Source: Nitratidesulfovibrio vulgaris str. Hildenborough (lineage in GTDB: Bacteria > Desulfobacterota > Desulfovibrionia > Desulfovibrionales > Desulfovibrionaceae). Taken from it: a DNA stretch of 32,000 bases. The notes under the pieces were generated by a model, which was given only the letters and a program-made list of their open reading frames with translations, ran no database searches and had not been told where the DNA came from. Below, piece by piece: positions 489-25,798 of this stretch (its first letter is position 1; every line of letters starts with the position of its first letter). Location: assembly GCF_000195755.1 (NCBI RefSeq), contig NC_002937.3, positions 750,001 through 782,000 of the forward strand, written 5' to 3'. Position numbers and translations under genes: made by a program.

Positions 489-498
489 ACTACTGTAT

Positions 499-514
499 AG
501 CAAATGGTGTGCCA
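499..514 (-). promoter_or_regulatory. sigma54 (-24/-12) promoter
   Basis: Minus strand reads TGGCACaccatTTGCT. GG and GC are spaced exactly as in the consensus TGGCAC-N5-TTGCW. It lies 85-140 bp downstream of tandem palindromes and next to a sigma54-activator gene. Confidence 0.65.
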
Positions 515-596
515 TGCTCGTGGTGGGGCCAGATGGGCTTCTGAGGCGGTTTTGTTTGCGGCTGCTAGACGAAAGAGCGGGTGTCTTCGGCGTTTC

Positions 597-641
597 GTGC
601 GGAAAAGCACGTGCGAATACGCACGGCGTGCGATTGCGCAC
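597..641. promoter_or_regulatory. three tandem palindromic sites, likely upstream activating sequence for an enhancer-binding protein
   Basis: GTGCGgaaaAGCAC (597..610), GTGCGaataCGCAC (611..624) and GTGCGattgCGCAC (628..641). The last site overlaps the first base of the response-regulator stop codon at 641..643. Confidence 0.55.
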
Positions 642-2107
642 TATTTGCGGAGGCGGCGCAGCAGGGCGAAGCGCGAGAGGCCGAGAAGGGTGGCCGCGCG
701 GGTCTTGTTTCCGTTGCAGCGTTGCAGGGCCTGTTCTACGAGGCGTTCGACGAACTCATGCAGGTTCATGCCCTCGTCAGGGATGCGAAAGTCTTCCGGT
801 GTCGACGTGAGGACTTCGTTGGCAGGGGGGCCCTCGGACCCGGTCCTGTGGGACACATCGTCCGAAAGCCTGATGGGGAGGACGAGGTGCTCCGGGCGAA
901 GCAGCGTCCCGTCATGCAGCAGGACCGCGCGTTCGATGGTGTTTTCCAGTTCGCGGACGTTACCCTTCCAGACGGCGCTTTGCAGCAGGGCGAGTGCTTC
1001 ATCGTCGATGCCCGTGAATTGCTTTTTCTTGCGGGCGGCTTCCCGGCGCAGGAAGAGGGCTGCCATCTCCGGGATGTCTTCGCGCCTTTCACGCAACGGT
1101 GGCAGGATGAGGTGCCCGACCCGAAGCCGATGATAGAGGTCGCGTCTGAACAGGCCGTTTTCGACCATCTGCTCGAGGTCGCGGTTGGCCGCGCATACGA
1201 TGCGTGCGCGGAAGTTGCGCCGCTTGAGGCCGCCCAGCCTGTAGAAGGTGCGTTCTTCAAGGACGCGCAAGAGCTTGGGTTGCAGATGCAAGGGCAGTTC
1301 AGCCACTTCGTCCAGGAAAAGAGTGCCGTCGGCTGCCAGTTCGAGCTTCCCCGGCGAGCCTCCGCTCCGGCTTCCGGTGTAGGCTCCCGCCTCGTGTCCG
1401 AAGAGCTCGCTCTCGAACAGTTCGGTGGGGATGGCGGCGCAGTTGAGGTCGATGAAGGGCCTGTCGTCGCCGTCGTGTCCGAAATGGACGAGTCTTGCCA
1501 CGACCTCCTTGCCGGTGCCCGTTTCGCCTTCGACAAGGACGGGTACGGAAGGGTCGGCATGGAAGATGGCGGCTTCTTCGAGGATGCGCCGCATGGCGGG
1601 CGAGGCTGTGACGATGTCTCCGATGCCCGAGACGTTGCGAAGCCGCAGACGAGCCGCTTCAAGGTCCTGCCGCAATGCCGTTGTGGCCTGCGCAACACGT
1701 CCTTCCATGTCGGAACGGAGAGTGGCGTTTTCCGAGACCAGCGCCATATGCTCTGCACAGCGGTCGACCACGATGGCGAGTTCGCGGGCGTTGATGGGCT
1801 TGTTGAGGTAGTCGTAGGCCCCGCGTCGCAGGGCTTCCACGGCTGTCTCCATGTCGCCGTGGCCGGTGATGAGGACCACATTGCTCTTCGCCGTGGCCGT
1901 ATCCGACTTGAGGTGGGCGAGAAGCTCAAGCCCGTCCATGTCAGGCATGCGGATGTCGGTGATTATCAGCGGGTAGAACGTACGGGCCGCTTCTTCGATG
2001 GCCCGGTGCGGATGCGGCACGGCAGTGGCCTGATGCCCGAGGTCTTCCAGCACGGTGCGGAGGCTTTCGAGGCTGGTGGCGTTGTCATCGACTATCAGGA
2101 TGCGCAA
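641..2107 (-). CDS. sigma54-dependent response regulator (NtrC family enhancer-binding protein)
   Basis: REC domain (MRILIVDD...ITDIRMPDMDG). AAA+ sigma54-interaction domain (GETGTGKE, ESELFGHEAGAYTGS, LFLDEV). C-terminal Fis-type HTH (NKTRAATLLGLSRFALLRRLRK). TTG start at 2107 with GGAGA 7 nt upstream. Overlaps the upstream kinase gene by 13 nt. Confidence 0.95.
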   Translation of the reverse strand: MRILIVDDNATSLESLRTVLEDLGHQATAVPHPHRAIEEAARTFYPLIITDIRMPDMDGLELLAHLKSDTATAKSNVVLITGHGDMETAVEALRRGAYDYLNKPINARELAIVVDRCAEHMALVSENATLRSDMEGRVAQATTALRQDLEAARLRLRNVSGIGDIVTASPAMRRILEEAAIFHADPSVPVLVEGETGTGKEVVARLVHFGHDGDDRPFIDLNCAAIPTELFESELFGHEAGAYTGSRSGGSPGKLELAADGTLFLDEVAELPLHLQPKLLRVLEERTFYRLGGLKRRNFRARIVCAANRDLEQMVENGLFRRDLYHRLRVGHLILPPLRERREDIPEMAALFLRREAARKKKQFTGIDDEALALLQSAVWKGNVRELENTIERAVLLHDGTLLRPEHLVLPIRLSDDVSHRTGSEGPPANEVLTSTPEDFRIPDEGMNLHEFVERLVEQALQRCNGNKTRAATLLGLSRFALLRRLRK

Positions 2108-4028: not shown

Positions 4029-6032
4029 TCAGTCTGTGGTGTGTTCGATGGGGGGCACTTCCGTCGTGCCCATGCCGGACAGAATGAGGCCGATGGTGCG
4101 CGAGAGCAATGATTCCAGTCGTGGAACGAGTTGCCTTGCTCCTGCGGTGTCGTCTTCGACAAGGCACAATCCCACGCGTTCCGTCAACATGGCAAGGGCC
4201 ACGGCGCCAGCATGCTCCGAAGCGAGGCGCAGCCGTTTGTTGAAGCGTGCGGCTTGTTGTGCGTCACCTTCTTCAAGGGCTCCGGCGAGCAGAGCGAAAT
4301 GCCGGGGGGCCTCATCGCAGAACGCCTTCCAGACCGGTTCGACAAGGTTGTGGTCTCCCCCGTGCCGCCGGACGACCTCGGACGGGGCAAGCAGGGCCGA
4401 CCTGTCGGGGATGACGGGAATGTCCCGCGCAGACGATGCCGAAAGGGCGAACCTGTCGAGCATGGCGTTGAAGGCTCGGGCGTTGATGGGCTTGGCGATG
4501 TAGTCGGTCATGCCCGAAGCCAGGAAGCGTTCGCGGTCGCCCTTGAGGGCATGTGCCGTGACGGCTACGACGGGGATGTTGCGGTCGACTCCGGGGTACT
4601 GGGCGTTGCGGATGCGTCGCAGCAATTCCAGCCCGCCCATGGGGTGCATCTTGACGTCCAGCAGGACGAGGTCGAACCGGTCGGCGGTGAGTCGCTGGAG
4701 GGCCGTGGCACCATCGTGGGCGCAGGCACAGACATGCCCTCTCTTGCGGAGCATCTTGCAGGTTATCGTCCGGCCCGTGGCGTCATCGTCCACCACCAGC
4801 ACCCGAAGCGGGCGTGCTCCTGATGCGGGTGTCGCTGAAGAGGTCGGGGCCTGAGCGTGTTCGGAAGGTGTGTTGATGGCAGGCGTCTCGGGCCGTAGAC
4901 GGCAGGTGAAGTGAAAGCTGCTTCCCTGTCCTTCGCTACTGCGGGCCCATATGCTGCCGCCCATGATTTCGACGAGGTTTCGGCAGATGGCGAGACCAAG
5001 CCCCGTGCCGCCATAGCGTTGGACCGTCTCTTCTGCACCCTGGCTGAACGCCTCGAAGATGGTGCGGAGGTGTTCATCGGCGATGCCGATGCCCGTGTCG
5101 CGAATGGAGAACAGCAGGGTGAGGCTTGAGGGCGGCCCGTCGGGAAAGAGCGATTCGAGAAGCGTCTGGTCCTGGGGGATGGCGCTCACTTCGATGATGA
5201 CCGAGCCCTTGTGGGTGAACTTGACGGCATTGCCGACGAGGTTGGCGAGTACCTGTGTAAGGCGTGTCGCGTCGCCTGTCAGTCTGTCCGGGACATCGGG
5301 CGTTACACGGAAGTCCAGGGAGATGTTCTTGCGTTCGGCTTCCGACCGCGATGCCTGCACAACCTGCTTCAGCAGTCTATCCAGTGAGAAGGGACGTTCC
5401 ACAAGCCGCAACTGGCGAGCCTCAAGCCGGGAGAAGTCGAGCACGTCGTGCAGCAGGGTGAGCAGCGTCTCGGAAGATGCAAGGACGGTGTTCAGGCTTT
5501 CGCGTTGTTCGCCCGACAGCGGGGTATCGAGGACCAGTTCCGTCATGCCCACGATGCCGTTCAGGGTGTTGCGTATTTCGTGGCTCATGCCTGCGAGGAA
5601 CGACGTCTTCGCAAGGCTGGCATGTTCCGCAGCCTGTCGGGCTTCGTCGATTTCGCGAACGGCCCTGTGCTTGAGCAGGGCGACCTCGATGGTGGAGTAG
5701 AGTTCGCGTTCGGCAAAGGGCTTGACAAGAAAGCCGAACGGCCCGGCTTTCATGGCCCTTGAGAGGGTCGCTTCGTCGGAGAAGGCGGTGAGAAAGACGA
5801 CAGGAATGTCGAACTGGTTGGTGATGACATGGGCGGCGTCTACGCCGTCACCGCGCCGCAGGCGGATGTCCATCAGAACGAGGTCCGGCCTGAGACGCTT
5901 CGCCGCATCGATGGCTCCGTCTGCATCCGTCTCGACGGCAGGCACTATGTACCCAAGACCTTCGAGCGTGCGCCGTAGATCAAGTGCGACGATCTGTTCG
6001 TCGTCGACGACGATGATACGAAGATTCGGCAT
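4029..6032 (-). CDS. hybrid histidine kinase: REC - HisKA/HATPase - REC - HPt-like tail
   Basis: N-terminal REC (RIIVVDDEQ...LVLMDIRL). H-box SHEIRNTLNGIVG. G2 box GTGLGLAICRNLVEIMGG. Second REC (RVLVVDDD...LVLLDVKM). C-terminal four-helix HPt-like region. ATG at 6032 (MPNLRIIVVDD) preceded by GGAG; the ORF-track start at 6086 is TTG with no RBS. Confidence 0.9.
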   Translation of the reverse strand: MPNLRIIVVDDEQIVALDLRRTLEGLGYIVPAVETDADGAIDAAKRLRPDLVLMDIRLRRGDGVDAAHVITNQFDIPVVFLTAFSDEATLSRAMKAGPFGFLVKPFAERELYSTIEVALLKHRAVREIDEARQAAEHASLAKTSFLAGMSHEIRNTLNGIVGMTELVLDTPLSGEQRESLNTVLASSETLLTLLHDVLDFSRLEARQLRLVERPFSLDRLLKQVVQASRSEAERKNISLDFRVTPDVPDRLTGDATRLTQVLANLVGNAVKFTHKGSVIIEVSAIPQDQTLLESLFPDGPPSSLTLLFSIRDTGIGIADEHLRTIFEAFSQGAEETVQRYGGTGLGLAICRNLVEIMGGSIWARSSEGQGSSFHFTCRLRPETPAINTPSEHAQAPTSSATPASGARPLRVLVVDDDATGRTITCKMLRKRGHVCACAHDGATALQRLTADRFDLVLLDVKMHPMGGLELLRRIRNAQYPGVDRNIPVVAVTAHALKGDRERFLASGMTDYIAKPINARAFNAMLDRFALSASSARDIPVIPDRSALLAPSEVVRRHGGDHNLVEPVWKAFCDEAPRHFALLAGALEEGDAQQAARFNKRLRLASEHAGAVALAMLTERVGLCLVEDDTAGARQLVPRLESLLSRTIGLILSGMGTTEVPPIEHTTD

Positions 6033-6172: not shown

Positions 6173-6195
6173 CCGGTGTTGCCAGCCCGGGTACG

Positions 6196-6226
6196 AAAAA
6201 AACGGGCGACCCTTGCGGGCCGCCCG
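6196..6226 (-). terminator. rho-independent terminator of the repressor gene
   Basis: Minus strand CGGGCGGCCC-gcaa-GGGUCGCCCG (10-bp stem with one mismatch) followed by UUUUUUU (6202..6196). Lies 26 nt after the stop at 6252. Confidence 0.75.
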
Positions 6227-6251: not shown

Positions 6252-6950
6252 TCAGATGCGCTGGAGCACCCACACGATACGCCCGAAGATACGGTCGGCG
6301 TGCTGGTCGATGGGCAGATACTGCTCGGGGTGGGTGGGATTCTCTGTCCGGAGGATGAACCGGGCATTGGCAGCATCGAGGAACACCCGCTTGATGGCGA
6401 CACCCTCGAAGGGCATGAAGACGCCATAGAGTTCGCCCGAGACGATGTTCTTCTGGGTGGTGTCTATGCCGACGAAAGCACCCTTGCCGATGACGGGTTC
6501 CATGGCGCCTGCATCCACACGCACTATCTGCGTTCCGGGGGCGGCAAACGACTGGGGTACGGCAAGTTTGGCGATGGCCGTGAGCGGTTGCGAAACACCG
6601 TTCTCGTCGACAGCGCAGCCCATGGCGAACACAGTGGCGACACTGCTCTTGGCATCAGGGTCGCCGTAACGCGCGGGGTCTTCAAGCACGAGTCCGGCGA
6701 CGGGGGCGTCGAGCGGTTCATACCCCTGGTCGGTACGCAGGTACATGGGGCCGGAGCCCTTCTTGAGCCAGTCAGGATTCAGCCCGAACTTCTCGAACAG
6801 TTTCATGTACCAGTCGGAGGGGACGGAGTTGCGTCGTTTGGCGTCTGATATGCTCGACTGGCGAATGTCGAGGACTTCCGCCAGCTCGACCTGCGTTCTG
6901 GTGTTCGTGGCGAGCTTGATGCGCTCAAAGACTTCATCGAACGTAGACAA
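6252..6950 (-). CDS. phage CI-type HTH repressor with S24 (LexA/CI) peptidase-like C-terminal domain
   Basis: The N-terminus STFDEVFERIKLATNTRTQVELAEVLDIRQSSISDAKRRNSVPSDWYMKLFEKFGLNPDWLKKG looks like a CI-repressor HTH. The C-terminus VRVDAGAMEPVIGKGAFVGID...VAIKRV is an S24 fold. I chose the TTG at 6950 with GGAGAA 5 nt upstream. ATGs at 7040 and 7097 lie inside or upstream of the predicted promoter, so an annotated start could differ. Confidence 0.8.
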   Translation of the reverse strand: MSTFDEVFERIKLATNTRTQVELAEVLDIRQSSISDAKRRNSVPSDWYMKLFEKFGLNPDWLKKGSGPMYLRTDQGYEPLDAPVAGLVLEDPARYGDPDAKSSVATVFAMGCAVDENGVSQPLTAIAKLAVPQSFAAPGTQIVRVDAGAMEPVIGKGAFVGIDTTQKNIVSGELYGVFMPFEGVAIKRVFLDAANARFILRTENPTHPEQYLPIDQHADRIFGRIVWVLQRI

Positions 6951-7038
6951 TGCTTTTCTCCGGGCGGCGAAGCCGGGCCTGGGGCCTGGGCATCGCCTCT
7001 GATCTGAGTGCTCTCGTCTGTAGGGTATCCTAGCTACC

Positions 7039-7067
7039 ATTATAGACGAGTGCAACACTATTGTTGA
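7039..7067 (-). promoter_or_regulatory. sigma70-type promoter with overlapping palindromic operator for the repressor gene
   Basis: Minus strand TCAACA (7067..7062), 17-nt spacer, TATAAT (7044..7039). The palindrome CAACActatTGTTG (7053..7066) overlaps the -35 element. Confidence 0.45.
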
Positions 7068-7135
7068 AGAAGAGTACGCTCCGCGCTCCGGTTGCATGGA
7101 GCTAAAGGTCTTGCGTATGGCGTACTATGGCGAGC

Positions 7136-7200
7136 AAAAATCGGGCCACCAACGTGTCTTCGTGGAATCTCCAGCGAAGTGGCACGTATGGTGGCCCGAT
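7136..7200 (-). terminator. probable hflC terminator (long-loop hairpin plus U run)
   Basis: Minus strand AUCGGGCCACC (7200..7190) pairs with GGUGGCCCGAU (7150..7140), followed by a U run (A5 on the + strand at 7136..7140). The large 39-nt interior may fold further. Confidence 0.5.
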
Positions 7201-7278
7201 GTGTCACAATCGGAAGCCGATAGTGTCACACATGTTACATGTCTGTCTCGCTCATCTGTAACATGTCATGCGACACAA

Positions 7279-8130
7279 TCAGGGGCGAATCGGCTTGAGC
7301 AGCGGGTCATCGGGGGTGAGCACGAACCGCGTACCCTCTTTCAGCGAGTTGCGCAGCGTCTCAAGCCCGCGCATGAACTCGAAGAACTCGGGTGCCTGAC
7401 CGTAGGCGTTCGCGAAGGTGCGCGTCGCCACGGCGTCACCCTCACCACGGATGATCTCGGCCTTCTGGTTGGCTTCCGCCAGCAGTACGGCCCGCTCACG
7501 GTCGGCCAAGGAGCGGATCTTGGTCGACTCTTCCTGTCCTTCCGAGCGATATTGCTTGGCTTGCCGTTCGCGTTCGGCGCGCATGCGTCCGAAGATGGCG
7601 CGCTGGTTCTCGGCGGGCAGGTCGGTTCGCTTGATGCGCACGTCGATGACCTCCATGCCGTATTCGGACATGAGTTCAGAGGTGCGACGTGTCACTTCGG
7701 TCATGATCTCTGCACGCTTGGAGGCGACCACTTCGGTGAGGGTATGCCGTCCCACATGGACACGCAGCTGCGAGTAGACCATGTCGTCAAGGCGGGTCTG
7801 GGCACCGGGAATGGTCCGTACGGTGCGGTAGAAGGTCAGCGGGTCGGTGATGCGCCAGCGTGCGTAGTTGTCGAGTACGATGGCCTTCTTGTCGCTGGTG
7901 AGGGCCTCGGCGGAGCGGGCGTCATAATCGAGCATCCGTGCATCGAAGAAGATCACGTTCTGTATGAAGGGCAGCTTGAAGTGCAACCCCGGCCCGGAAA
8001 CTTGTCCGACAGGTTCACCAAGTTGCAGTACGATGGCCTTCTGCGTCTGGTGCACGGTGTAGAAACTCTGCCCGCCGATGATGAACACGGCCAGCACGGC
8101 AATGAGGAGGGTGAGGCTCTTGCGGCTCAT
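7279..8130 (-). CDS. hflC: HflC, band-7/SPFH modulator of FtsH protease
   Basis: MSRKSLTLLIAVLAVFIIGGQSFYTVHQTQKAIVLQLGEP... shows a single N-terminal TM segment plus an SPFH domain. ATG at 8130 with GGGAGG 8 nt upstream, 1 nt after the hflK stop. The ORF-track start at 8202 overlaps hflK. Confidence 0.95.
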   Translation of the reverse strand: MSRKSLTLLIAVLAVFIIGGQSFYTVHQTQKAIVLQLGEPVGQVSGPGLHFKLPFIQNVIFFDARMLDYDARSAEALTSDKKAIVLDNYARWRITDPLTFYRTVRTIPGAQTRLDDMVYSQLRVHVGRHTLTEVVASKRAEIMTEVTRRTSELMSEYGMEVIDVRIKRTDLPAENQRAIFGRMRAERERQAKQYRSEGQEESTKIRSLADRERAVLLAEANQKAEIIRGEGDAVATRTFANAYGQAPEFFEFMRGLETLRNSLKEGTRFVLTPDDPLLKPIRP

Positions 8131-8131
8131 G

Positions 8132-9268
8132 CTAGTTGCCTCCCTTCGTACCGGTCTGTGGCGCGGGTGTGAGTCTGTCCAGCGGCAGATAGGGCAGGAC
8201 ACGGCCTGCGGTCTCGCGAGGCAGGATGATGCGCTCGACGCCGTTGCGCGAGAGAATCTCCTGCATGGTCTCGAAGTACAGGCGCTTGCGCGTCACGTCC
8301 TTGGCCGCGTTGTATTCCTTGAGCACGGCGATGAAGCGTTGGGCCTCGCCTTCGGCCTGTCGGGTGCGGGTCTCTCGGTAGCCTTCGGCCTGGTTGACGA
8401 GTTCAGCCGCCGCGCCACGGGTGCGGGGCAGGAGTTCGTTGCGGTAGGCTTCGGCCTCGTTGACGATGCGGCTCTTGTCCTCGCGGGCGGAGGCGACATC
8501 CTTGAAGGCGTCGATGACCTCCTTGGGCGGGTGCACGTCCTGCATCTGAACTGCGAGCACGCGGATGCCAACCTTGTATCGGTCGAGAATCTCCTGAAGC
8601 AGCGTCGTCGTTTCGTTCTGGATACGAAGCTTGCCGTCAGTGAGTGCCGCGTCGATGAGGCTGTTGCCGATGATCTCGCGCATGGCCGCCTCCGCGGCAT
8701 TGCGGACTACGGCCGCCTGGTCGGTGACGTTGAAGAGGTACTCCACAGGGTCCTTGATCTGATACTGCACGCTGAACTGCACGTTGACGATGTTCTCGTC
8801 ACCGGTCAGCATGGCGGCCTCTTCGGGGAAGACGCGTCCCTGTCCCTGCTGGAAGGTGGCGCCCTGCGTCGGCGAGCGGAATCCTATCTCCACCCGTTGC
8901 ACCTGCGTCACCTTGGGCTTGTAGACCCGTTCAACAGGGAAGGGCAGGTGGTAGTGCGGGCCGGGGCCGACAGTACGGTCGTACTGTCCGAACCGGAGCA
9001 CCACCCCTGCTTCGTCGGGGTTGATGATGTAGACACCGGAAAGAAGCCACAGGACGGCCACAGCCGCTGCGGCAAGTTTGCCGGTAGGAAACGGGAATTC
9101 GCGGAAGCGGCGGAACGAATCGCCAAGCTTCTCGAAGTCCGGCCCGGAGGGCGGAGGCGTATCGCCTTGGTCGCCGCCACCCCAGCCGCCCGTCTGCCGC
9201 TGCCGTTTTTCTTGCAGTTTGTCCCAATCCCAGTTCATAATACTGAAAAAATAGGGCAGTTGTTGCAT
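8132..9268 (-). CDS. hflK: HflK, band-7/SPFH modulator of FtsH protease
   Basis: Gly-rich N-terminus, TM segment (AAAAVAVLWLLSGVYII) and SPFH domain, directly upstream of hflC. The start is uncertain: ATG at 9268 or the in-frame ATG at 9238 (MNWDWDKLQEK...). Neither has a clear SD. Confidence 0.9.
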   Translation of the reverse strand: MQQLPYFFSIMNWDWDKLQEKRQRQTGGWGGGDQGDTPPPSGPDFEKLGDSFRRFREFPFPTGKLAAAAVAVLWLLSGVYIINPDEAGVVLRFGQYDRTVGPGPHYHLPFPVERVYKPKVTQVQRVEIGFRSPTQGATFQQGQGRVFPEEAAMLTGDENIVNVQFSVQYQIKDPVEYLFNVTDQAAVVRNAAEAAMREIIGNSLIDAALTDGKLRIQNETTTLLQEILDRYKVGIRVLAVQMQDVHPPKEVIDAFKDVASAREDKSRIVNEAEAYRNELLPRTRGAAAELVNQAEGYRETRTRQAEGEAQRFIAVLKEYNAAKDVTRKRLYFETMQEILSRNGVERIILPRETAGRVLPYLPLDRLTPAPQTGTKGGN

Positions 9269-16526: not shown

Positions 16527-17786
16527 TTACTTGCGGTTCAACTCCGCTTCCTGCGGGAAGATGGGCAGATAGCGGTAGGAGAGGCTGAGCACGAGGGCAG
16601 CATAGGCGACGATCATCACGCTGGCACCCCATTCGGCCCAGTTCGGCAGGTAGCTTTCCCACGAGTCGAAGGGCATGACCGGGATGGCGAGTGCCTGCAC
16701 GGTCATGACGTAGCGGTTGATGGTGATGCCGATGCAGTCGAGGATGGCTGCGCTGTAGAACAGCACAGGGTTGTTGCGCAGGGCGGGCACGATGAGGATG
16801 ATGGCAGGAACCAGACCGCAGTAGAACAGTTCGGCCCACAGCATCCACTTGCCGTAAATCCAGCCGCTGGTGAACATCTGATCGAAGGTCAGCCCCTGAC
16901 GCGGGAGCAGGTCGTAGGCCCACGCGTAGGTGTCGGCGAACTTGAAGATCAGGTAGACCATGAGCATGGTACCGGCGATCTTGCCCATGAGGCTCTTCAC
17001 TTCCCACGACACCAGCTTGCGGCCGGTCATCTTCTCCATGAGCGTGCAGACCAGCACCGTGAACACCGGGCCGGAGCCCACGGCGGAGAGCACGTACAGG
17101 AAGAAGGTCCAGGGCCAGATGAAGAAGCCTTCGCGGTAGATGTAGGGACGGCCGAAGAGGACGCCGTACATGCCACCGAGCGAACCCTGGTGGAAGGTGG
17201 AGAGGAAGGCACCGATACCGGCGAACAGCGGCATCATGACGTGGAAGTTATGCGCCACGGCATGCACCAGCTTGTTCTTGTTGAGCTGACGGTTTTCGAG
17301 GATCAGCGGGACGTACTCGATGATGAGCACGAGGCAGTAGCACGTGATGCAGAAGATGACTTCGGTGAGCATCGAGTGCACGTTGGCGTGCCAGTAGCCG
17401 AACCATGCGCGAAGCGGCTGGCCGATGTCGAGCACGAGCACGAGCATGGCACCCGAGTAGCACAGAAAGCCGATGATGACGGCAAGGTTGATGATGTTCT
17501 TCAGCGGGTCGATGTTCAGGATGTAGCGCAGCAGACCCGAGAAGAACGCACCGGCACCGAGGGCGATGACGGCAAGGTCGAACGTGATCCAGAGGCCGAA
17601 ACCGAAGTAGTCGTCAAGCCCGGTCACGCCGAGGCCTTCGGCGAGGACGCGGTAGGCCGCGTACAGACCCCAGCCGAAGAACACGAACACGAAGGCCATC
17701 CACATCATGAACTTGGAGAGTGAGCAGCGCTCGCAGCCCTCCGGGAACAGTTCGGCATCGACGGGAAGGTTGTAGTTCTTGTCCAT
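16527..17786 (-). CDS. qrcD: QrcD, NrfD/PsrC-type integral membrane quinone-interacting subunit
   Basis: About 10 hydrophobic helices in an NrfD-like protein. Last gene of a cytochrome c / molybdopterin-like / FeS / NrfD four-gene cluster. Confidence 0.93.
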   Translation of the reverse strand: MDKNYNLPVDAELFPEGCERCSLSKFMMWMAFVFVFFGWGLYAAYRVLAEGLGVTGLDDYFGFGLWITFDLAVIALGAGAFFSGLLRYILNIDPLKNIINLAVIIGFLCYSGAMLVLVLDIGQPLRAWFGYWHANVHSMLTEVIFCITCYCLVLIIEYVPLILENRQLNKNKLVHAVAHNFHVMMPLFAGIGAFLSTFHQGSLGGMYGVLFGRPYIYREGFFIWPWTFFLYVLSAVGSGPVFTVLVCTLMEKMTGRKLVSWEVKSLMGKIAGTMLMVYLIFKFADTYAWAYDLLPRQGLTFDQMFTSGWIYGKWMLWAELFYCGLVPAIILIVPALRNNPVLFYSAAILDCIGITINRYVMTVQALAIPVMPFDSWESYLPNWAEWGASVMIVAYAALVLSLSYRYLPIFPQEAELNRK

Positions 17787-17789
17787 GAC

Positions 17790-18557
17790 CTACCCCTTGA
17801 CCTTTTCGTGTTCGAGATAGTTGTCGCCAAGGCGACGCACCCATTCACGGCGGCTCAGGTAGTACACCTGCGGGTCGGTGCCGAGGCGTTCGAGCAGCCT
17901 GAAGGCATACTTGCTCTTGTGGAGTTCATGCACACGATGCTCGGGGTTGTTGAAGTCCCCGAAGATGATGGCGCCGTTGGGGCACGCCTCGGTGCACGAG
18001 GTCACGTAGTCACCGTCACGCAGGGCGCTGGGGTCGCGTCCTTCGACACGGGCCTTATCCTTGGCCTGCATGAAGCGGTGGTGGCAGAAGGTGCACTTTT
18101 CCACGACACCGCGCGGACGTACGGAGACGTCGGGGGTGAGGGTCTTGTCCATACCTTCGGGCCACGTGGGGTCGAACCAGTTGAAGTAACGGGCATGGTA
18201 GGGGCACGAGGCCATGCAGTACCGGCAACCGATGCATCGCGGGTACACCTGGCTGACGATGCCGCCTTCCTCGTTCTTGTCGGTCGCCACGACAGGGCAC
18301 ACCGACACGCATGAAGGCTTGCCGCACTGCATGCACGGACGGGGCAGGTAGGCCACGTCGTGCTCGGGGAACGGCTTGCCGTTGTTGAGTTCGTACACCA
18401 CAAGCCAGTTCAGCGACTTCAGCTTGTTGCTGGCATCAGGCTGCGGGGCGATGTTGTTCTCGGCCTGACAGGCAACCATGCACGCGCCGCAGCCCGTACA
18501 TTTGTCGAGGTCGATGACCATCCCCCACTTGATCTTGAATTCCTTGAAAGAAGACAT
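17790..18557 (-). CDS. qrcC: QrcC, periplasmic 4Fe-4S cluster protein
   Basis: Ferredoxin-type motifs CTGCGACMVAC, CMQCGKPSCVSVCP, CIGCRYCMASCP and CTFCHHR, typical of a PsrB/HybA-like subunit. Confidence 0.93.
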   Translation of the reverse strand: MSSFKEFKIKWGMVIDLDKCTGCGACMVACQAENNIAPQPDASNKLKSLNWLVVYELNNGKPFPEHDVAYLPRPCMQCGKPSCVSVCPVVATDKNEEGGIVSQVYPRCIGCRYCMASCPYHARYFNWFDPTWPEGMDKTLTPDVSVRPRGVVEKCTFCHHRFMQAKDKARVEGRDPSALRDGDYVTSCTEACPNGAIIFGDFNNPEHRVHELHKSKYAFRLLERLGTDPQVYYLSRREWVRRLGDNYLEHEKVKG

Positions 18558-18569
18558 GACGTACGTTCC

Positions 18570-20645
18570 TTATGCTTTGGCGATGTTGACGCCGGCACCG
18601 GTCCAAACCGCGAGCCCTGTAACAGGCTCGGTGCTGGGTGCAAGCAGGTGCATCACGTTTTCGCCCTTGCCCTTGCTGAACTCGTCGAAGGCGGTGTGGC
18701 CGAAGCCGAGCGGCATCGCCACGGTGTCGTTCATGACACCTTCGAAGATGTTCACGCGGACCGTCACCTTGCCTGTGGGGTTGGACAGCACGACGCGGTC
18801 ATGCTGAGCGAGACCCAGCTTGCGGGCGGTCGCACCGTTCAGCATCACGTAGCCTTCCTTGCCCTGAACTTCCCAGCGGCGGATGGTCTTCGTGTTGAAC
18901 GGCGGAATGGCCGTCTTGCTGGTGCCCATGTTCAGCTTCATGACCGGGGCGAGCGCCAGCGGAAGGGCGGGGGCCTTCACGTCGAGCGCCTTGGAGAGTA
19001 CGTCGGGCCGGAACGACAGGTTGGCACCTACAGTCGCGCGGCTGGTGAAGGCGGTGCCCTCGGCCAGCTTGTCGAAGTCGGCACCGTGGGCGGCTGCCTT
19101 GGCCTTGAGCATGTCTTCGAAGGAGGCTACGCCGAGGTCGAGACCAAGCTTGCCACCGAGGGCGATGAGCGCGTCACCGGCGGGCTTGGTGTCGAACAGG
19201 GGAGCCGTTACGGGCGTGGCGAGGCTGTAGACGACTTCGCCGCAACCGTAGGGCGTGCATACGTCGTCGAGTCGTTCAAGCCCCATGGATACGGGGATGA
19301 CGAGGTCGCACTGCATGGCGGTCTCATCGAGGAAGCTGGTGAAGGCCACCTTGAAGGGAACCTTGGCCAGCGTGTCCTTGAAGGCCGAGCCCTGCGGGAG
19401 GGCGTAGACCGGGTTGGCCTCGTAGACCAGCATGGCCTTGGGAGCCTTGGCCTTGCCGGAGGCAATGGCGGAGGCCCACAGGGTGAGGTCCTGCTGCAGC
19501 ATGGCCTTGCGGTCCATGCCTGCGGGAACGACCTTCCTGGCCACGGGCAGGGCCCGCAGGCCGCCGTCCCGGTTCACCGAGCCAAGCAGCATGTTGAGGG
19601 CGATGCCAGCCATGACGGGGGCAGCGCCTGCGCCCTGGCTGAATTCGGAACCCACGATGACCAGAGGATGCTTCGCCTTGGCGAGTGCCTGTGCAAGGGC
19701 TGTGAGGGCCTTCGCGTCGACACCGGTCTGGGCGGCGACCTTCTCGGGGGAGAAGGAGGCGGCGAGACTGCGGAAGGCGTCGAAGTCGGGAGCGGAGGAC
19801 GATGCCCCCGCCTTGATGAGCAGATGGGCCAGACCGAGGGCGAAGGCCGATTCGGTCCCGGGGCGGATGGGCAGCCAGTCGTCGGCGCCTGTGGCGGTGT
19901 TGTTGAGCACCGGCCCGGCATAGACGAACTGCGCCGTGGGCTCGGCCCCGTGCGGGTGGCTGGCGCCGAAGGCATGGCGGTTACGGATGGCCGTTCCCCA
20001 TGCTTCGAGGACGTTGGCACCGATGGCGAGCACGAAGTCGCTCTTCTCGATGTCGTAGCCGATTTGCCCTTCGCCGCCCATGAGGTCCCATGCCTTGGCG
20101 GCGGGCTGTGCCTCGCCGGGCATGAGGAAGAAGCTCTTCGAACCGCTCTGCTGCACGAAGGCGGAGAGCAGTTCGTTGATGGTGCCGTTGTCGTCGCCGG
20201 AGATGCAGGCGAGGGCGTCGCCGCCCTTGGCGGCCTTGAGGCCGTCAAGCAGCATGGCCTCCGCCTCTTCCCACGAGATCATCACATACGCGCCGTCGGG
20301 CGAACGCTTCAGCGGGCGCTTCATGCGCGCGGGGCTGTAGAGCATCTGCACTTCGGCGGCAGCGATGGAAGACACGCCGCCCTTGCTCAGCGGGTGTTCG
20401 GGGTTGCCGATGACGCGCACGGGGCGGCCGTCGACAAGGCGTACCCGGACACCTATGCCGGTGGGGCAGAGCTTGCTGACAGTGGGAACGTAGCTGTTGG
20501 CCCCCTTGATGTTACGGGGGATCCACGACCAGTTCTGGGACCAGATGGATACGTCATCGAGGCCTTTCCACACCACGGGAGTGGCGAGGATGCCTGCGGT
20601 GGCGCCGCCTATGAACTTGAGAAAACCTCTTCTGTCCAGTGCCAT
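18570..20645 (-). CDS. qrcB: QrcB, molybdopterin-oxidoreductase-family subunit (cofactor-less type) with Tat signal
   Basis: Twin-arginine signal MALDRRGFLKFIGGATAG and a molybdopterin oxidoreductase fold throughout. Only one Cys (LCPTG) remains of the usual N-terminal 4-Cys FeS motif. GAGGGG RBS. Confidence 0.93.
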   Translation of the reverse strand: MALDRRGFLKFIGGATAGILATPVVWKGLDDVSIWSQNWSWIPRNIKGANSYVPTVSKLCPTGIGVRVRLVDGRPVRVIGNPEHPLSKGGVSSIAAAEVQMLYSPARMKRPLKRSPDGAYVMISWEEAEAMLLDGLKAAKGGDALACISGDDNGTINELLSAFVQQSGSKSFFLMPGEAQPAAKAWDLMGGEGQIGYDIEKSDFVLAIGANVLEAWGTAIRNRHAFGASHPHGAEPTAQFVYAGPVLNNTATGADDWLPIRPGTESAFALGLAHLLIKAGASSSAPDFDAFRSLAASFSPEKVAAQTGVDAKALTALAQALAKAKHPLVIVGSEFSQGAGAAPVMAGIALNMLLGSVNRDGGLRALPVARKVVPAGMDRKAMLQQDLTLWASAIASGKAKAPKAMLVYEANPVYALPQGSAFKDTLAKVPFKVAFTSFLDETAMQCDLVIPVSMGLERLDDVCTPYGCGEVVYSLATPVTAPLFDTKPAGDALIALGGKLGLDLGVASFEDMLKAKAAAHGADFDKLAEGTAFTSRATVGANLSFRPDVLSKALDVKAPALPLALAPVMKLNMGTSKTAIPPFNTKTIRRWEVQGKEGYVMLNGATARKLGLAQHDRVVLSNPTGKVTVRVNIFEGVMNDTVAMPLGFGHTAFDEFSKGKGENVMHLLAPSTEPVTGLAVWTGAGVNIAKA

Positions 20646-20660
20646 TGCACCACCCCTCTG

Positions 20661-21293
20661 TTACTTGTGGCACACGAAGCAGGCGTTGCTGGAGTTGGTC
20701 ACGCCAAGGTGGTTCTCATTGGCGTGGCAACGCTCGCACTGCCACATCTTCATGGTCTGCTTGCTGTAACCGGTAAGCTTGTTCTCGTAGTGGGTCGGGG
20801 CCTTGTCGGAATCCGCCACGTCGAGGTGGCAGAGATTGCAAAGCTCCCTCTCCGAGAACTGGTGACACTGGTTGCAGCCGTCCAGAGAGTGCGCCGCATG
20901 GCTGAAGAACACGTTGTCGGGCTGATACTGGTAGACCAGCCACTTCACTTCCTTGCCGGACTTCACGTACTCAGCCACGAACCGCGCCTCTTCGGGGTCG
21001 GACCCGAGGACGTCGGAGTGGCATTCGGCACAGCTCGCGGTGGAGGGCAGGCCAGCAAAGGACCCGTCCTCGCGCAGGCTGTGGCACTGCTTACATTCCA
21101 TGCCAGCATCATTGACATGGACCTTGTGGCTGAACCGGATCGGCTGTTCTTTCTGGCTGTAGAGCATTTCCGGGAATGCCCACCAACCGAAGACCAGCGC
21201 GACGACCAGGCCGACGAAGAACGGCGCTGCGCCACCACATGCGCATTTGCGACCGTTTTCGTTGTCTGCATTGGTTAACTGCCTGTCCTCCAT
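20661..21293 (-). CDS. qrcA: QrcA, membrane-anchored hexahaem cytochrome c
   Basis: Six CxxCH motifs (CKQCH, CAECH, CNQCH, CNLCH, CERCH, CFVCH) after one TM helix. I chose the ATG at 21293 (MEDRQLT...) with GAGG upstream, because the ORF-track TTG at 21350 lies inside the predicted promoter. Confidence 0.9.
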   Translation of the reverse strand: MEDRQLTNADNENGRKCACGGAAPFFVGLVVALVFGWWAFPEMLYSQKEQPIRFSHKVHVNDAGMECKQCHSLREDGSFAGLPSTASCAECHSDVLGSDPEEARFVAEYVKSGKEVKWLVYQYQPDNVFFSHAAHSLDGCNQCHQFSERELCNLCHLDVADSDKAPTHYENKLTGYSKQTMKMWQCERCHANENHLGVTNSSNACFVCHK

Positions 21294-21352
21294 ACCCTTC
21301 GCCTCAGCAGGTTTGAAGATGGATAACGATAGCCCACACTTGCCAAGCAACC

Positions 21353-25706: not shown

Positions 25707-25798
25707 GGAAGGGTGGCAGAGTCCGGTTTATTGCGGCGGTCTTGAAAACCGTTGTGGGGGGAACCCCACCGGGGGTTCGAATCCCTCCCCTTCCGCCA
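25707..25798 (+). tRNA. tRNA-Ser (anticodon UGA), CCA encoded
   Basis: Cloverleaf by hand: acceptor GGAAGGG/CCCTTCC; D arm GCAG..TTGC with a GG loop; anticodon stem GCGGT/ACCGT with loop CT-TGA-AA; long variable arm (TGTGGGGGGAACCCCACCG); T arm GGGGG-TTCGAAT-CCCTC; discriminator G plus CCA. 92 nt. Confidence 0.95.

Follow-up and report, generated by a model that had tools for sequence, protein, structure and literature searches.

We have analyzed a 32,000-nucleotide stretch of the chromosome of Nitratidesulfovibrio vulgaris str. Hildenborough (D. vulgaris; positions 750,001 to 782,000 of NC_002937.3, hereafter the window), and in it a regulatory gene, DVU0682, which occupies 6252..6950 on the minus strand (stop codon counted) and encodes a protein of 232 amino acids. 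Together the evidence makes it probable that the protein is a transcription factor of the S24 fold that does not cleave itself, that it stands under the control of sigma-54 and of the enhancer-binding protein (EBP) DVU0744, and that it relays the DVU0744 signal. Its main promoter, at 7132..7150, is sigma-54-dependent. An earlier reading of the sequence (the first-pass annotation) had seen here an orphan CI-type repressor, uncoupled from the SOS response and repressing itself at a promoter of its own: that interpretation is supported in part.

Control of DVU0682 by sigma-54 and DVU0744

For DVU0682, a sigma-54 promoter at -200 is given in the supplements of Kazakov et al. 2015 (PMC4641369), together with four half-sites for DVU0744: TGTTACA at -313, TGTAACA at -289 and TGTGACA at -280 and -258. 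Every one of these strings is found in the window, at exactly the published offset from a TTG codon at 6950, and on this agreement of promoter and half-sites the gene can be assigned as DVU0682 of D. vulgaris Hildenborough. The promoter, GGTGGCCCGATTTTTGCTC, is identical to the published one and lies at 7132..7150 (-); within it (TGGCCCGATTTTTGCT) the GG of the -24 element (7146..7147) and the GC of the -12 element (7134..7135) are correctly spaced, and transcription probably starts near 7122. The half-sites, at 7257..7263, 7233..7239, 7224..7230 and 7202..7208 (all minus strand), define an upstream activating region of four TGTNACA sequences (7202..7263), ∼80–140 bp 5′ of the inferred start; sites and offsets are those of PMC4641369. 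DVU0744 itself is a response-regulator EBP whose targets in DNA-affinity-purified-chip (DAP-chip) experiments carry sigma-54 promoters, and binding at the DVU0682 upstream region has been reported (Rajeev et al. 2011, PMC3333781). DVU0682 is also listed as a sigma-54-dependent DVU0744 target of the class 'transcriptional regulation' (PMC4641369).

The arrangement recurs in related genomes, where the regulator gene likewise follows hflC. In the hflC–regulator intergenic regions of relatives GTAAC-N-GTTAC dyads are strongly enriched (22 observed, 1.7 expected), and pairs of TGTAAC-N-GTTACA-like dyads are found after hflC, with a sigma-54-type TGGC-N-TTGC motif ∼100 bp further downstream. TGGC-N-TTGC sites that resemble the promoter are present in the loci L081 and L082. 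A strict sigma-54 scan (GC at -12, score of at least 10) overlooked most of these sites; a relaxed scan tied to the half-sites recovered the module in 20 of 53 long hflC–regulator intergenic regions. No such module was found 5′ of hflK in those loci where the three genes appear to form one operon. Across the whole window GTNACATGTNAC has a single, intergenic, site that is not significant alone, the signal emerging only through enrichment across species.

In seven loci with intergenic regions of 720–960 bp (L049, L051, L055, L056, L060, L040 and L041) a sigma-54-like promoter stands 450–700 bp 5′ of the regulator start, which implies either very long leaders or an unannotated small gene or RNA between promoter and regulator.

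The DVU0682 leader from the sigma-54 promoter measures ∼170 nt; its fold is not unusual (z = −1.5), and an Rfam search of the intergenic region returned nothing in it. Immediately upstream, a long hairpin followed by a U-run (AUUUUUG) is found at 7140..7200 (-): with a predicted stability of −41.6 kcal/mol (z = −7.2; 0 of 200 shuffled sequences as stable) it is a probable terminator of hflC. Its 3′ arm and U-run double as the -24 and -12 elements of the sigma-54 promoter. The hairpin was missed by the terminator scan because its loop and internal structure exceed the limits of the scan.

Expression in vivo

Raw RNA-seq counts are given in the source data of Figure 5 of Turkarslan et al. 2017 (PMC5371734), from 13 samples of the wild type and 16 of DVU0744::Tn5. 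We re-analyzed these counts relative to the sum for DVU0003 and DVU0004. The latter two genes we take to be gyrB and gyrA. In the wild type DVU0682 stood at 1.10 in syntrophy and 0.31 in sulfate respiration; in DVU0744::Tn5 the corresponding values were 0.17 and 0.12, that is, a drop of 2.6- to 6.5-fold. The neighbors were unchanged: hflC gave 0.66 (syntrophy) and 0.41 (sulfate respiration) in the wild type as against 0.58 and 0.39 in the mutant, and DVU0681 0.35 and 0.13 as against 0.27 and 0.13. DVU0744 is needed for most DVU0682 expression and for all of its dependence on condition. DVU0682 behaves as a monocistronic unit between the hairpin at 7140..7200 and a terminator of its own, an intrinsic terminator with a 10-bp stem (9 GC pairs) and a T-run that the terminator scan placed at 6193..6226 (-). 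The first-pass annotation had proposed this terminator, and the RNA-seq data bear it out: DVU0681 does not follow the 6.5-fold change in DVU0682.

The same study reports DVU0682 as up, and hflK and hflC as down, in syntrophy (Table EV5), and detected the DVU0682 protein by proteomics with 7 peptides (PMC5371734). In its environment and gene regulatory influence network (EGRIN) models DVU0682 is predicted to influence, weakly, two modules in which genes of translation and DNA topology are enriched (PMC5371734), a connection that is only a hint. A role for DVU0682 as regulator of hflKC was considered and rejected, the hflC mRNA remaining steady while that of DVU0682 falls 6.5-fold.

Some expression persists without DVU0744, amounting to ∼11–15% of the wild-type syntrophic level, and this bears on the model put forward in the first-pass annotation: a stand-alone repressor, uncoupled from SOS, that is transcribed from its own sigma-70 promoter and represses itself through a palindrome. 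The strings in question are indeed present. A sigma-70-like sequence, TCAACA-17-TATAAT, lies at 7039..7067 (-), inside the sigma-54 leader, and matches the consensus at 10 of 12 positions; the palindrome CAACActatTGTTG (equivalently CAACAATAGTGTTG), with 5-bp arms, overlaps its -35 element at 7053..7066; and the residual expression calls for some promoter, or read-through, that is independent of DVU0744. The palindrome, however, is at chance level: inverted repeats with 5-bp arms and spacers of 0–10 nt are expected 5.3 times per 330 bp and were observed 6 times in the DVU0682 intergenic region. Moreover, promoter and palindrome are both absent from L081 (86% identity), from L082 (81%) and from Nitratidesulfovibrio, and, the helix-turn-helix (HTH) being invariant, an operator for it should be conserved, which makes an autoregulatory role for the palindrome unlikely. 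Given in addition that most expression and all condition-dependence require DVU0744, we regard the self-repressing sigma-70 model as unlikely. Of the earlier claim the strings stand; their proposed function gives way to the published sigma-54 control. The sigma-70-like site may nonetheless be the source of basal, DVU0744-independent transcription, the alternative being read-through from hflC. A de novo search for exact dyads with 5-bp arms 5′ of hflK in 71 loci found none common to more than five, and so no candidate operator for the regulator.

Start codon and domain architecture

The open reading frame as listed extended over 6252..7097 (-), but the true start is the TTG at 6950 (6948..6950), with a GGAG ribosome-binding site at 6958..6961 (-), 7 nt 5′ of it, read from the sequence. 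Four lines of evidence place the start here: the length of the 120 closest homologues (∼230 amino acids each), their conserved N-terminus (all open with (M)STF(D/E)E at the position equivalent to the TTG), the GTG codons of relatives, and the match to the published site offsets.

The start is non-ATG in every close relative checked (TTG in DVU0682, GTG in L001–L005, L081 and L082), which suggests that translation initiation of the regulator may be deliberately weak.

The protein consists of two domains. The first, a Phage_CI_repr HTH (PF07022, E = 2.1e-10, above the gathering score), spans residues 7–70 (6741..6932, minus strand) and contains a nearly invariant recognition helix, IRQSSISDAKRR. 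The second is a Peptidase_S24-like β-barrel (PF00717, E = 5.1e-8; 33.1 bits against a cut-off of 23.3) of residues 128–226 (6273..6569, minus strand), which is catalytically degenerate. In PHROGs the full length matches phage transcriptional repressors (PHROG 4, E = 4.5e-23). An AlphaFold2 model, for which an alignment of 75 sequences was used, has a mean predicted local distance difference test (pLDDT) score of 83, with values above 90 in the C-terminal domain and a disordered linker at residues 83–95. Submitted to Foldseek, this model found as its top PDB match full-length CI of phage 186 (2fjr, E = 1.3e-9), followed by the C-terminal domains of LexA, lambda CI and UmuD′ with target-normalized TM-scores of 0.65–0.77. 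Sequence searches of the PDB, with the protein and with a family profile, also had the 186 CI HTH (2fjr) as best hit, weakly (E = 0.06); neither reached LexA, for which the fold search was needed. Domain calls and fold matches thus uphold the CI-type HTH plus S24 architecture that had been read from the sequence at the outset.

The protein is not LexA, its DNA-binding domain being of another type: the Pfam scan of DVU0682 returned a CI-type HTH and no LexA_DNA_bind domain, and the NCBIfam search gave no meaningful match and no LexA model. Existing labels are at odds with the protein. The orthologues P0010, P0011, P0020 and P0061 carry the NCBI names 'S24 family peptidase' or 'LexA family transcriptional regulator', the latter resting on the S24 domain only, and the UniProt entry for DVU0682, Q72E96, is tagged with PF07022 alone in a supplement of PMC5371734. 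Neither kind of label correctly describes a protein that joins a CI-type HTH to a dead S24 domain, and the names are misleading for the whole DVU0682 clade.

Loss of the catalytic dyad

Alignment with E. coli LexA, UmuD and lambda CI (MAFFT), and with LexA by hhalign, gave one and the same register, in which R-V-D-A-G-A-M-E-P of DVU0682 lies over R-V-S-G-M-S-M-K-D of LexA. Ala149 (codon GCC, 6504..6506, minus strand) is opposite the LexA nucleophile Ser119, and Lys187 (codon AAG, 6390..6392, minus strand), in VAIKRV, is opposite the general base Lys156, in VTVKRL. The alanine that the first-pass annotation had placed at the nucleophile position is correct to the base, and the general-base lysine is retained as it had stated.

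Whether the substitution is shared was asked of 121 orthologues (DVU0682 and the 120 homologues nearest to it, at 60% identity or more), with changes counted by the Fitch method on a neighbor-joining tree. Alanine is found in 15 of them; the nucleophile column otherwise holds serine (55), glycine (49) or asparagine (2), and flips at least 30 times, so that the expected substitution is real but is one state of a column that varies freely. Serine and alanine alternate even between sequences that are 97% identical. The surroundings behave quite differently: Met150 changed once, Glu151 five times and Pro152 never, and the median number of changes per column is 2 in the HTH and 16 in the C-terminal domain. 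The Lys187 column reads K in 113 and R in 8, and serine and lysine are kept together in 49–52 of the 121. The substrate side is no better preserved. The DVU0682 linker (residues 98–134) has neither Ala-Gly nor Cys-Gly, and lies in a poorly conserved region; only 18 of the 121 orthologues, and only 7 of the 49 that have both serine and lysine, show an [AC]-G dipeptide in the linker, in neither case at a fixed position.

A wider view came from an exhaustive search of 1.84 billion cluster representatives, which gave 3,622 matches at E up to 1e-3; the counts that follow refer to full-length proteins among the best 150 of these 3,622 that have residues at both dyad positions. A recognition helix of approximately QSSISDAK is common to 71 representatives, even at 30–45% overall identity. 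In these the 'Ser' column reads S26/A20/G6/N5/D5/other and the 'Lys' column R49/K12, and only 5 of the 71 keep the Ser+Lys dyad. Among proteins with other HTHs, 17 of 34 keep the canonical G-x-S-M-E-P...K dyad. Taken with the orthologue columns, this difference in retention indicates that the clade is a catalytically degenerate offshoot of ordinary CI/S24 repressors, and that the change from serine to alanine is a property of the family rather than a private lesion. Selection, as judged from substitution patterns, acts on the HTH and on the fold and not on catalysis.

LexA S119A is the classic non-cleavable mutant. PDB entry 1jhh, which is among our Foldseek matches, is this mutant. With this precedent, a dead and unconstrained serine column and no conserved Ala-Gly, loss of self-cleavage can be predicted for the family as a whole. 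The prediction, made for DVU0682 alone in the first-pass annotation, is sound for DVU0682 and is strengthened by the family comparison. DVU0682 itself lies outside the self-cleaving S24 repressors, having neither the nucleophilic serine nor the scissile Ala-Gly or Cys-Gly. It could be argued that the protein still cleaves itself by way of another nucleophile, or that cleavage survives in those orthologues with both serine and lysine: Lys187 is, after all, conserved, and such orthologues are numerous among close relatives. We find this very improbable. DVU0682 has alanine precisely where the LexA S119A mutant is non-cleavable, serine, glycine and alanine are exchanged between near-identical sequences, no scissile Ala-Gly is conserved, and arginine has taken the place of the lysine in most of the wider clade.

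Genomic context and distribution

With each GTDB species represented by one genome, a scan showed a relative of DVU0682 in 249 species-level genomes, 80 loci of which were retrieved for the analysis of synteny. All named genomes among the 80 belong to the Desulfovibrionaceae or to an unclassified relative; genera include Nitratidesulfovibrio (77–78% identity), Oleidesulfovibrio, Halodesulfovibrio and Bilophila. Far from being an 'orphan', DVU0682 is a chromosomal, vertically inherited core gene that the sulfate-reducing bacteria of this family have retained.

In the window hflC (Band_7/SPFH, Pfam E = 2.2e-37) occupies 7279..8130 (-) and hflK (Band_7/SPFH, E = 2.7e-29, supported also by synteny) 8132..9238 (-), the start codon of the latter being approximate. 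Of the 80 loci, 77 have hflC directly 5′ of the regulator; one could not be assessed owing to a contig end, and two have no hflKC. The outer flanks vary, with histidine kinases at some loci, ABC transporter genes in L082 and other genes elsewhere. The gap between hflC and the regulator is 12–49 bp in 27 of the 77 loci, which can accordingly be read as single operons, and 147–962 bp in the other 50. The adjacency to hflKC, which the first-pass annotation had set aside as a curiosity, is therefore a feature of the family, operon-like in about 27 loci. The simplest history, to judge by these gene orders, would be an ancestral hflK–hflC–regulator operon that in some lineages was interrupted by an inserted terminator and a promoter under EBP control.

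A functional reading of this conservation is that DVU0682 is a substrate or client of FtsH–HflKC, such that regulated proteolysis would replace self-cleavage as the means of turning it off and would keep the three genes together. In its favor are the persistence of the gene order in 77 of 80 loci amid variable outer flanks, the co-transcription implied by the short gaps, and the degradation by FtsH of the phage regulators lambda CII and 186 CII (PMC7708051). Nevertheless, gene order inside one bacterial family can persist by descent alone; five distant members (L084, L086, L087, L070 and L072) have no link to hflKC; and expression of the regulator and that of hflKC move in opposite directions in D. 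vulgaris, the 6.5-fold drop in DVU0682 leaving hflC mRNA flat. On balance we think a proteolytic link unlikely. One further distant member of the family retains the order PGM / hflK–hflC–regulator.

Two of the distant neighborhoods deserve description. In Solidesulfovibrio fructosivorans JJ (L084) tandem paralogues of the regulator (4033..4731 and 5001..5681) adjoin hypF and a rhomboid gene, and hflKC is not in the vicinity. In L086 (4192..4890) and L087 (4105..4916) members of ∼30% identity are preceded by two small, divergent HTH_26 (Cro/Xre-like) genes, in a conserved neighborhood of an NTP_transferase/Hexapep gene, an EPSP_synthase-family gene and uvrC; the arrangement resembles a CI/Cro switch without a phage.

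Could DVU0682 be no more than the immunity repressor left behind by a degraded prophage, neutral or decaying? The match to PHROG 4 (E = 4.5e-23), the structural similarity to 186 CI and the dead catalytic site would all be in keeping with such an origin. The gene, however, is found at one and the same place on the chromosome in 77 of 80 genomes at 52–86% identity and with a near-invariant HTH, which points to strong purifying selection; its GC content is ordinary; and the protein is expressed and regulated. As the first-pass annotation had noted, no phage genes flank it, and there are none anywhere in the 32-kb window. We consider this possibility effectively refuted.

A model for DVU0682

We propose the following. 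The S24-like barrel would be kept only as a module for dimerization or for the binding of a partner, and DVU0682 could not be inactivated by RecA-stimulated self-cleavage. Being closed to this trigger, its activity would be set mainly by synthesis: by the sigma-54/DVU0744 cascade, by the leader of ∼170 nt and by the weak TTG start. The nearly invariant recognition helix would bind a conserved operator and so relay the DVU0744 signal to a downstream regulon, and in the lineage of D. vulgaris the ancestral hflK–hflC–regulator operon would have been split by the inserted terminator and sigma-54 promoter.

Several points weigh against this model. Its output half, that is, the DNA target, the regulon and the oligomeric state, is inference. 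The reference sequences of LexA, UmuD and lambda CI were entered by hand, and the RNA-seq re-analysis rests on raw counts with crude normalization, despite which the effect of losing DVU0744 on DVU0682 is large and gene-specific. The conservation of Lys187 (K113/R8) may reflect a residual chemical role, or cleavage in members that keep the serine. Finally, TGTNACA is tied to DVU0744 by comparative genomics and DAP-chip, and could in principle be the operator of DVU0682 itself; against this, the motif goes with the sigma-54 promoter rather than with the gene, being found in 20 of the 53 long intergenic regions and in none of the operon-type loci.

If the model holds, its significance lies in the position of DVU0682 within a larger circuit. 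When DVU0744 is disrupted, more than 1,100 genes are misregulated, and Desulfovibrio–Methanococcus co-cultures under fluctuating conditions are spared population collapse (PMC5371734). No sigma-54-promoter target other than DVU0682 has been reported for DVU0744, which makes DVU0682 the obvious candidate to relay this phenotype; it is likely to be the output of the DVU0744 cascade. A bolder version would have the hflK–hflC–regulator module as the host counterpart of the phage CII/HflKC circuit, with a domesticated CI-type repressor turned off by FtsH–HflKC proteolysis in place of self-cleavage, and at the same time DVU0682 as the output regulator by which DVU0744 reprograms over 1,000 genes in shifts between syntrophy and sulfate respiration. 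That both should be true we hold to be unlikely. As the recognition helix is near-invariant across the Desulfovibrionaceae, including the gut genus Bilophila, a regulon established in one species would probably transfer to the whole family.

Other features of the window

The remainder of the window holds hybrid histidine kinases, an NtrC-type EBP, a phosphomannomutase-family gene, an aldehyde:ferredoxin oxidoreductase, RNase H, a molybdopterin oxidoreductase cluster, a chemoreceptor and a malate synthase-like gene in addition to hflK and hflC. PADLOC found no defense gene in the window, and specifically no defense-system match for the regulator, hflC or hflK. Four genes at 16527..21350 (-) encode a multihaem cytochrome c, a molybdopterin oxidoreductase, a 4Fe-4S protein and an NrfD-like membrane protein, a cluster that we presume to correspond to the Qrc quinone reductase complex of D. 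vulgaris, with which it is consistent. The sole Rfam match at gathering level in the window is a tRNA gene of 89 nt at 25707..25795 (+) (RF00005, 54 bits).

A second sigma-54 promoter, CATGGCACACCATTTGCTA, is found at 498..516 (-) with two CGTGC-N6-GCACG sites at 596..625 (-); promoter and sites have been published for Dv_sRNA2, a small RNA downstream of the EBP DVU0679, whose gene lies at 641..2107 (-). In the window these sites are ∼100 nt from the promoter, and the coordinates printed in the supplement differ by ∼565. As a second published locus they support the assignment of the window to D. vulgaris Hildenborough, or to a strain identical with it.

Comparison with known systems

Part of this picture is already known: the gene, its sigma-54 promoter and its control by DVU0744, as well as the existence of catalytically dead S24-fold regulators as a kind. 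Among the sigma-54/EBP cascades of D. vulgaris described by Kazakov et al. 2015 and Rajeev et al. 2011, DVU0682 already figures as a DVU0744 target, but is treated solely as the 'DNA-binding protein, putative' of its annotation in the supplements (PMC4641369). In searches of the literature for DVU0682, Dde_2949, DvMF_2676, Q72E96 and PF07022 we found, in the library searched, no paper that characterizes it, nor any description of its S24 fold, dead dyad, invariant helix and family conservation, or hflKC synteny.

The nearest relative by both sequence and structure in the PDB is CI of coliphage 186 (2fjr), which has an HTH of the same Phage_CI_repr family. 186 CI is not inactivated by RecA-stimulated self-cleavage but by the antirepressor Tum (PMC7708051), and to this extent it offers a parallel for a CI-type HTH repressor that dispenses with self-cleavage, as predicted for DVU0682. 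The differences are nonetheless considerable: 186 CI is the immunity repressor of a prophage, whereas DVU0682 is a chromosomal core gene with no phage context; the C-terminal domain of DVU0682, in contrast to that of 186 CI, is recognized by Pfam as Peptidase_S24; a Tum-like partner is not known for it; and its transcription depends on sigma-54 and an EBP.

With LexA, lambda CI and UmuD the protein shares the C-terminal β-barrel and the S24 motifs (an xSM-like turn, K-R and N-P-x-x-P). It departs from them in the alanine at the nucleophile position, a position unconstrained in its family, and in having no conserved Ala-Gly; from LexA it differs further in its CI-type HTH, which is not the LexA winged helix, and in that no SOS context is evident. 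A further parallel is the LexA-related protein of Synechocystis sp. PCC 6803 (sll1626), a host regulator recruited to redox regulation (PMC1524924). Like DVU0682 it has an S24-type domain without the serine of the dyad and without an Ala-Gly site, and in cellular physiology sll1626 is the most clear-cut earlier example of an S24 regulator that is catalytically dead.

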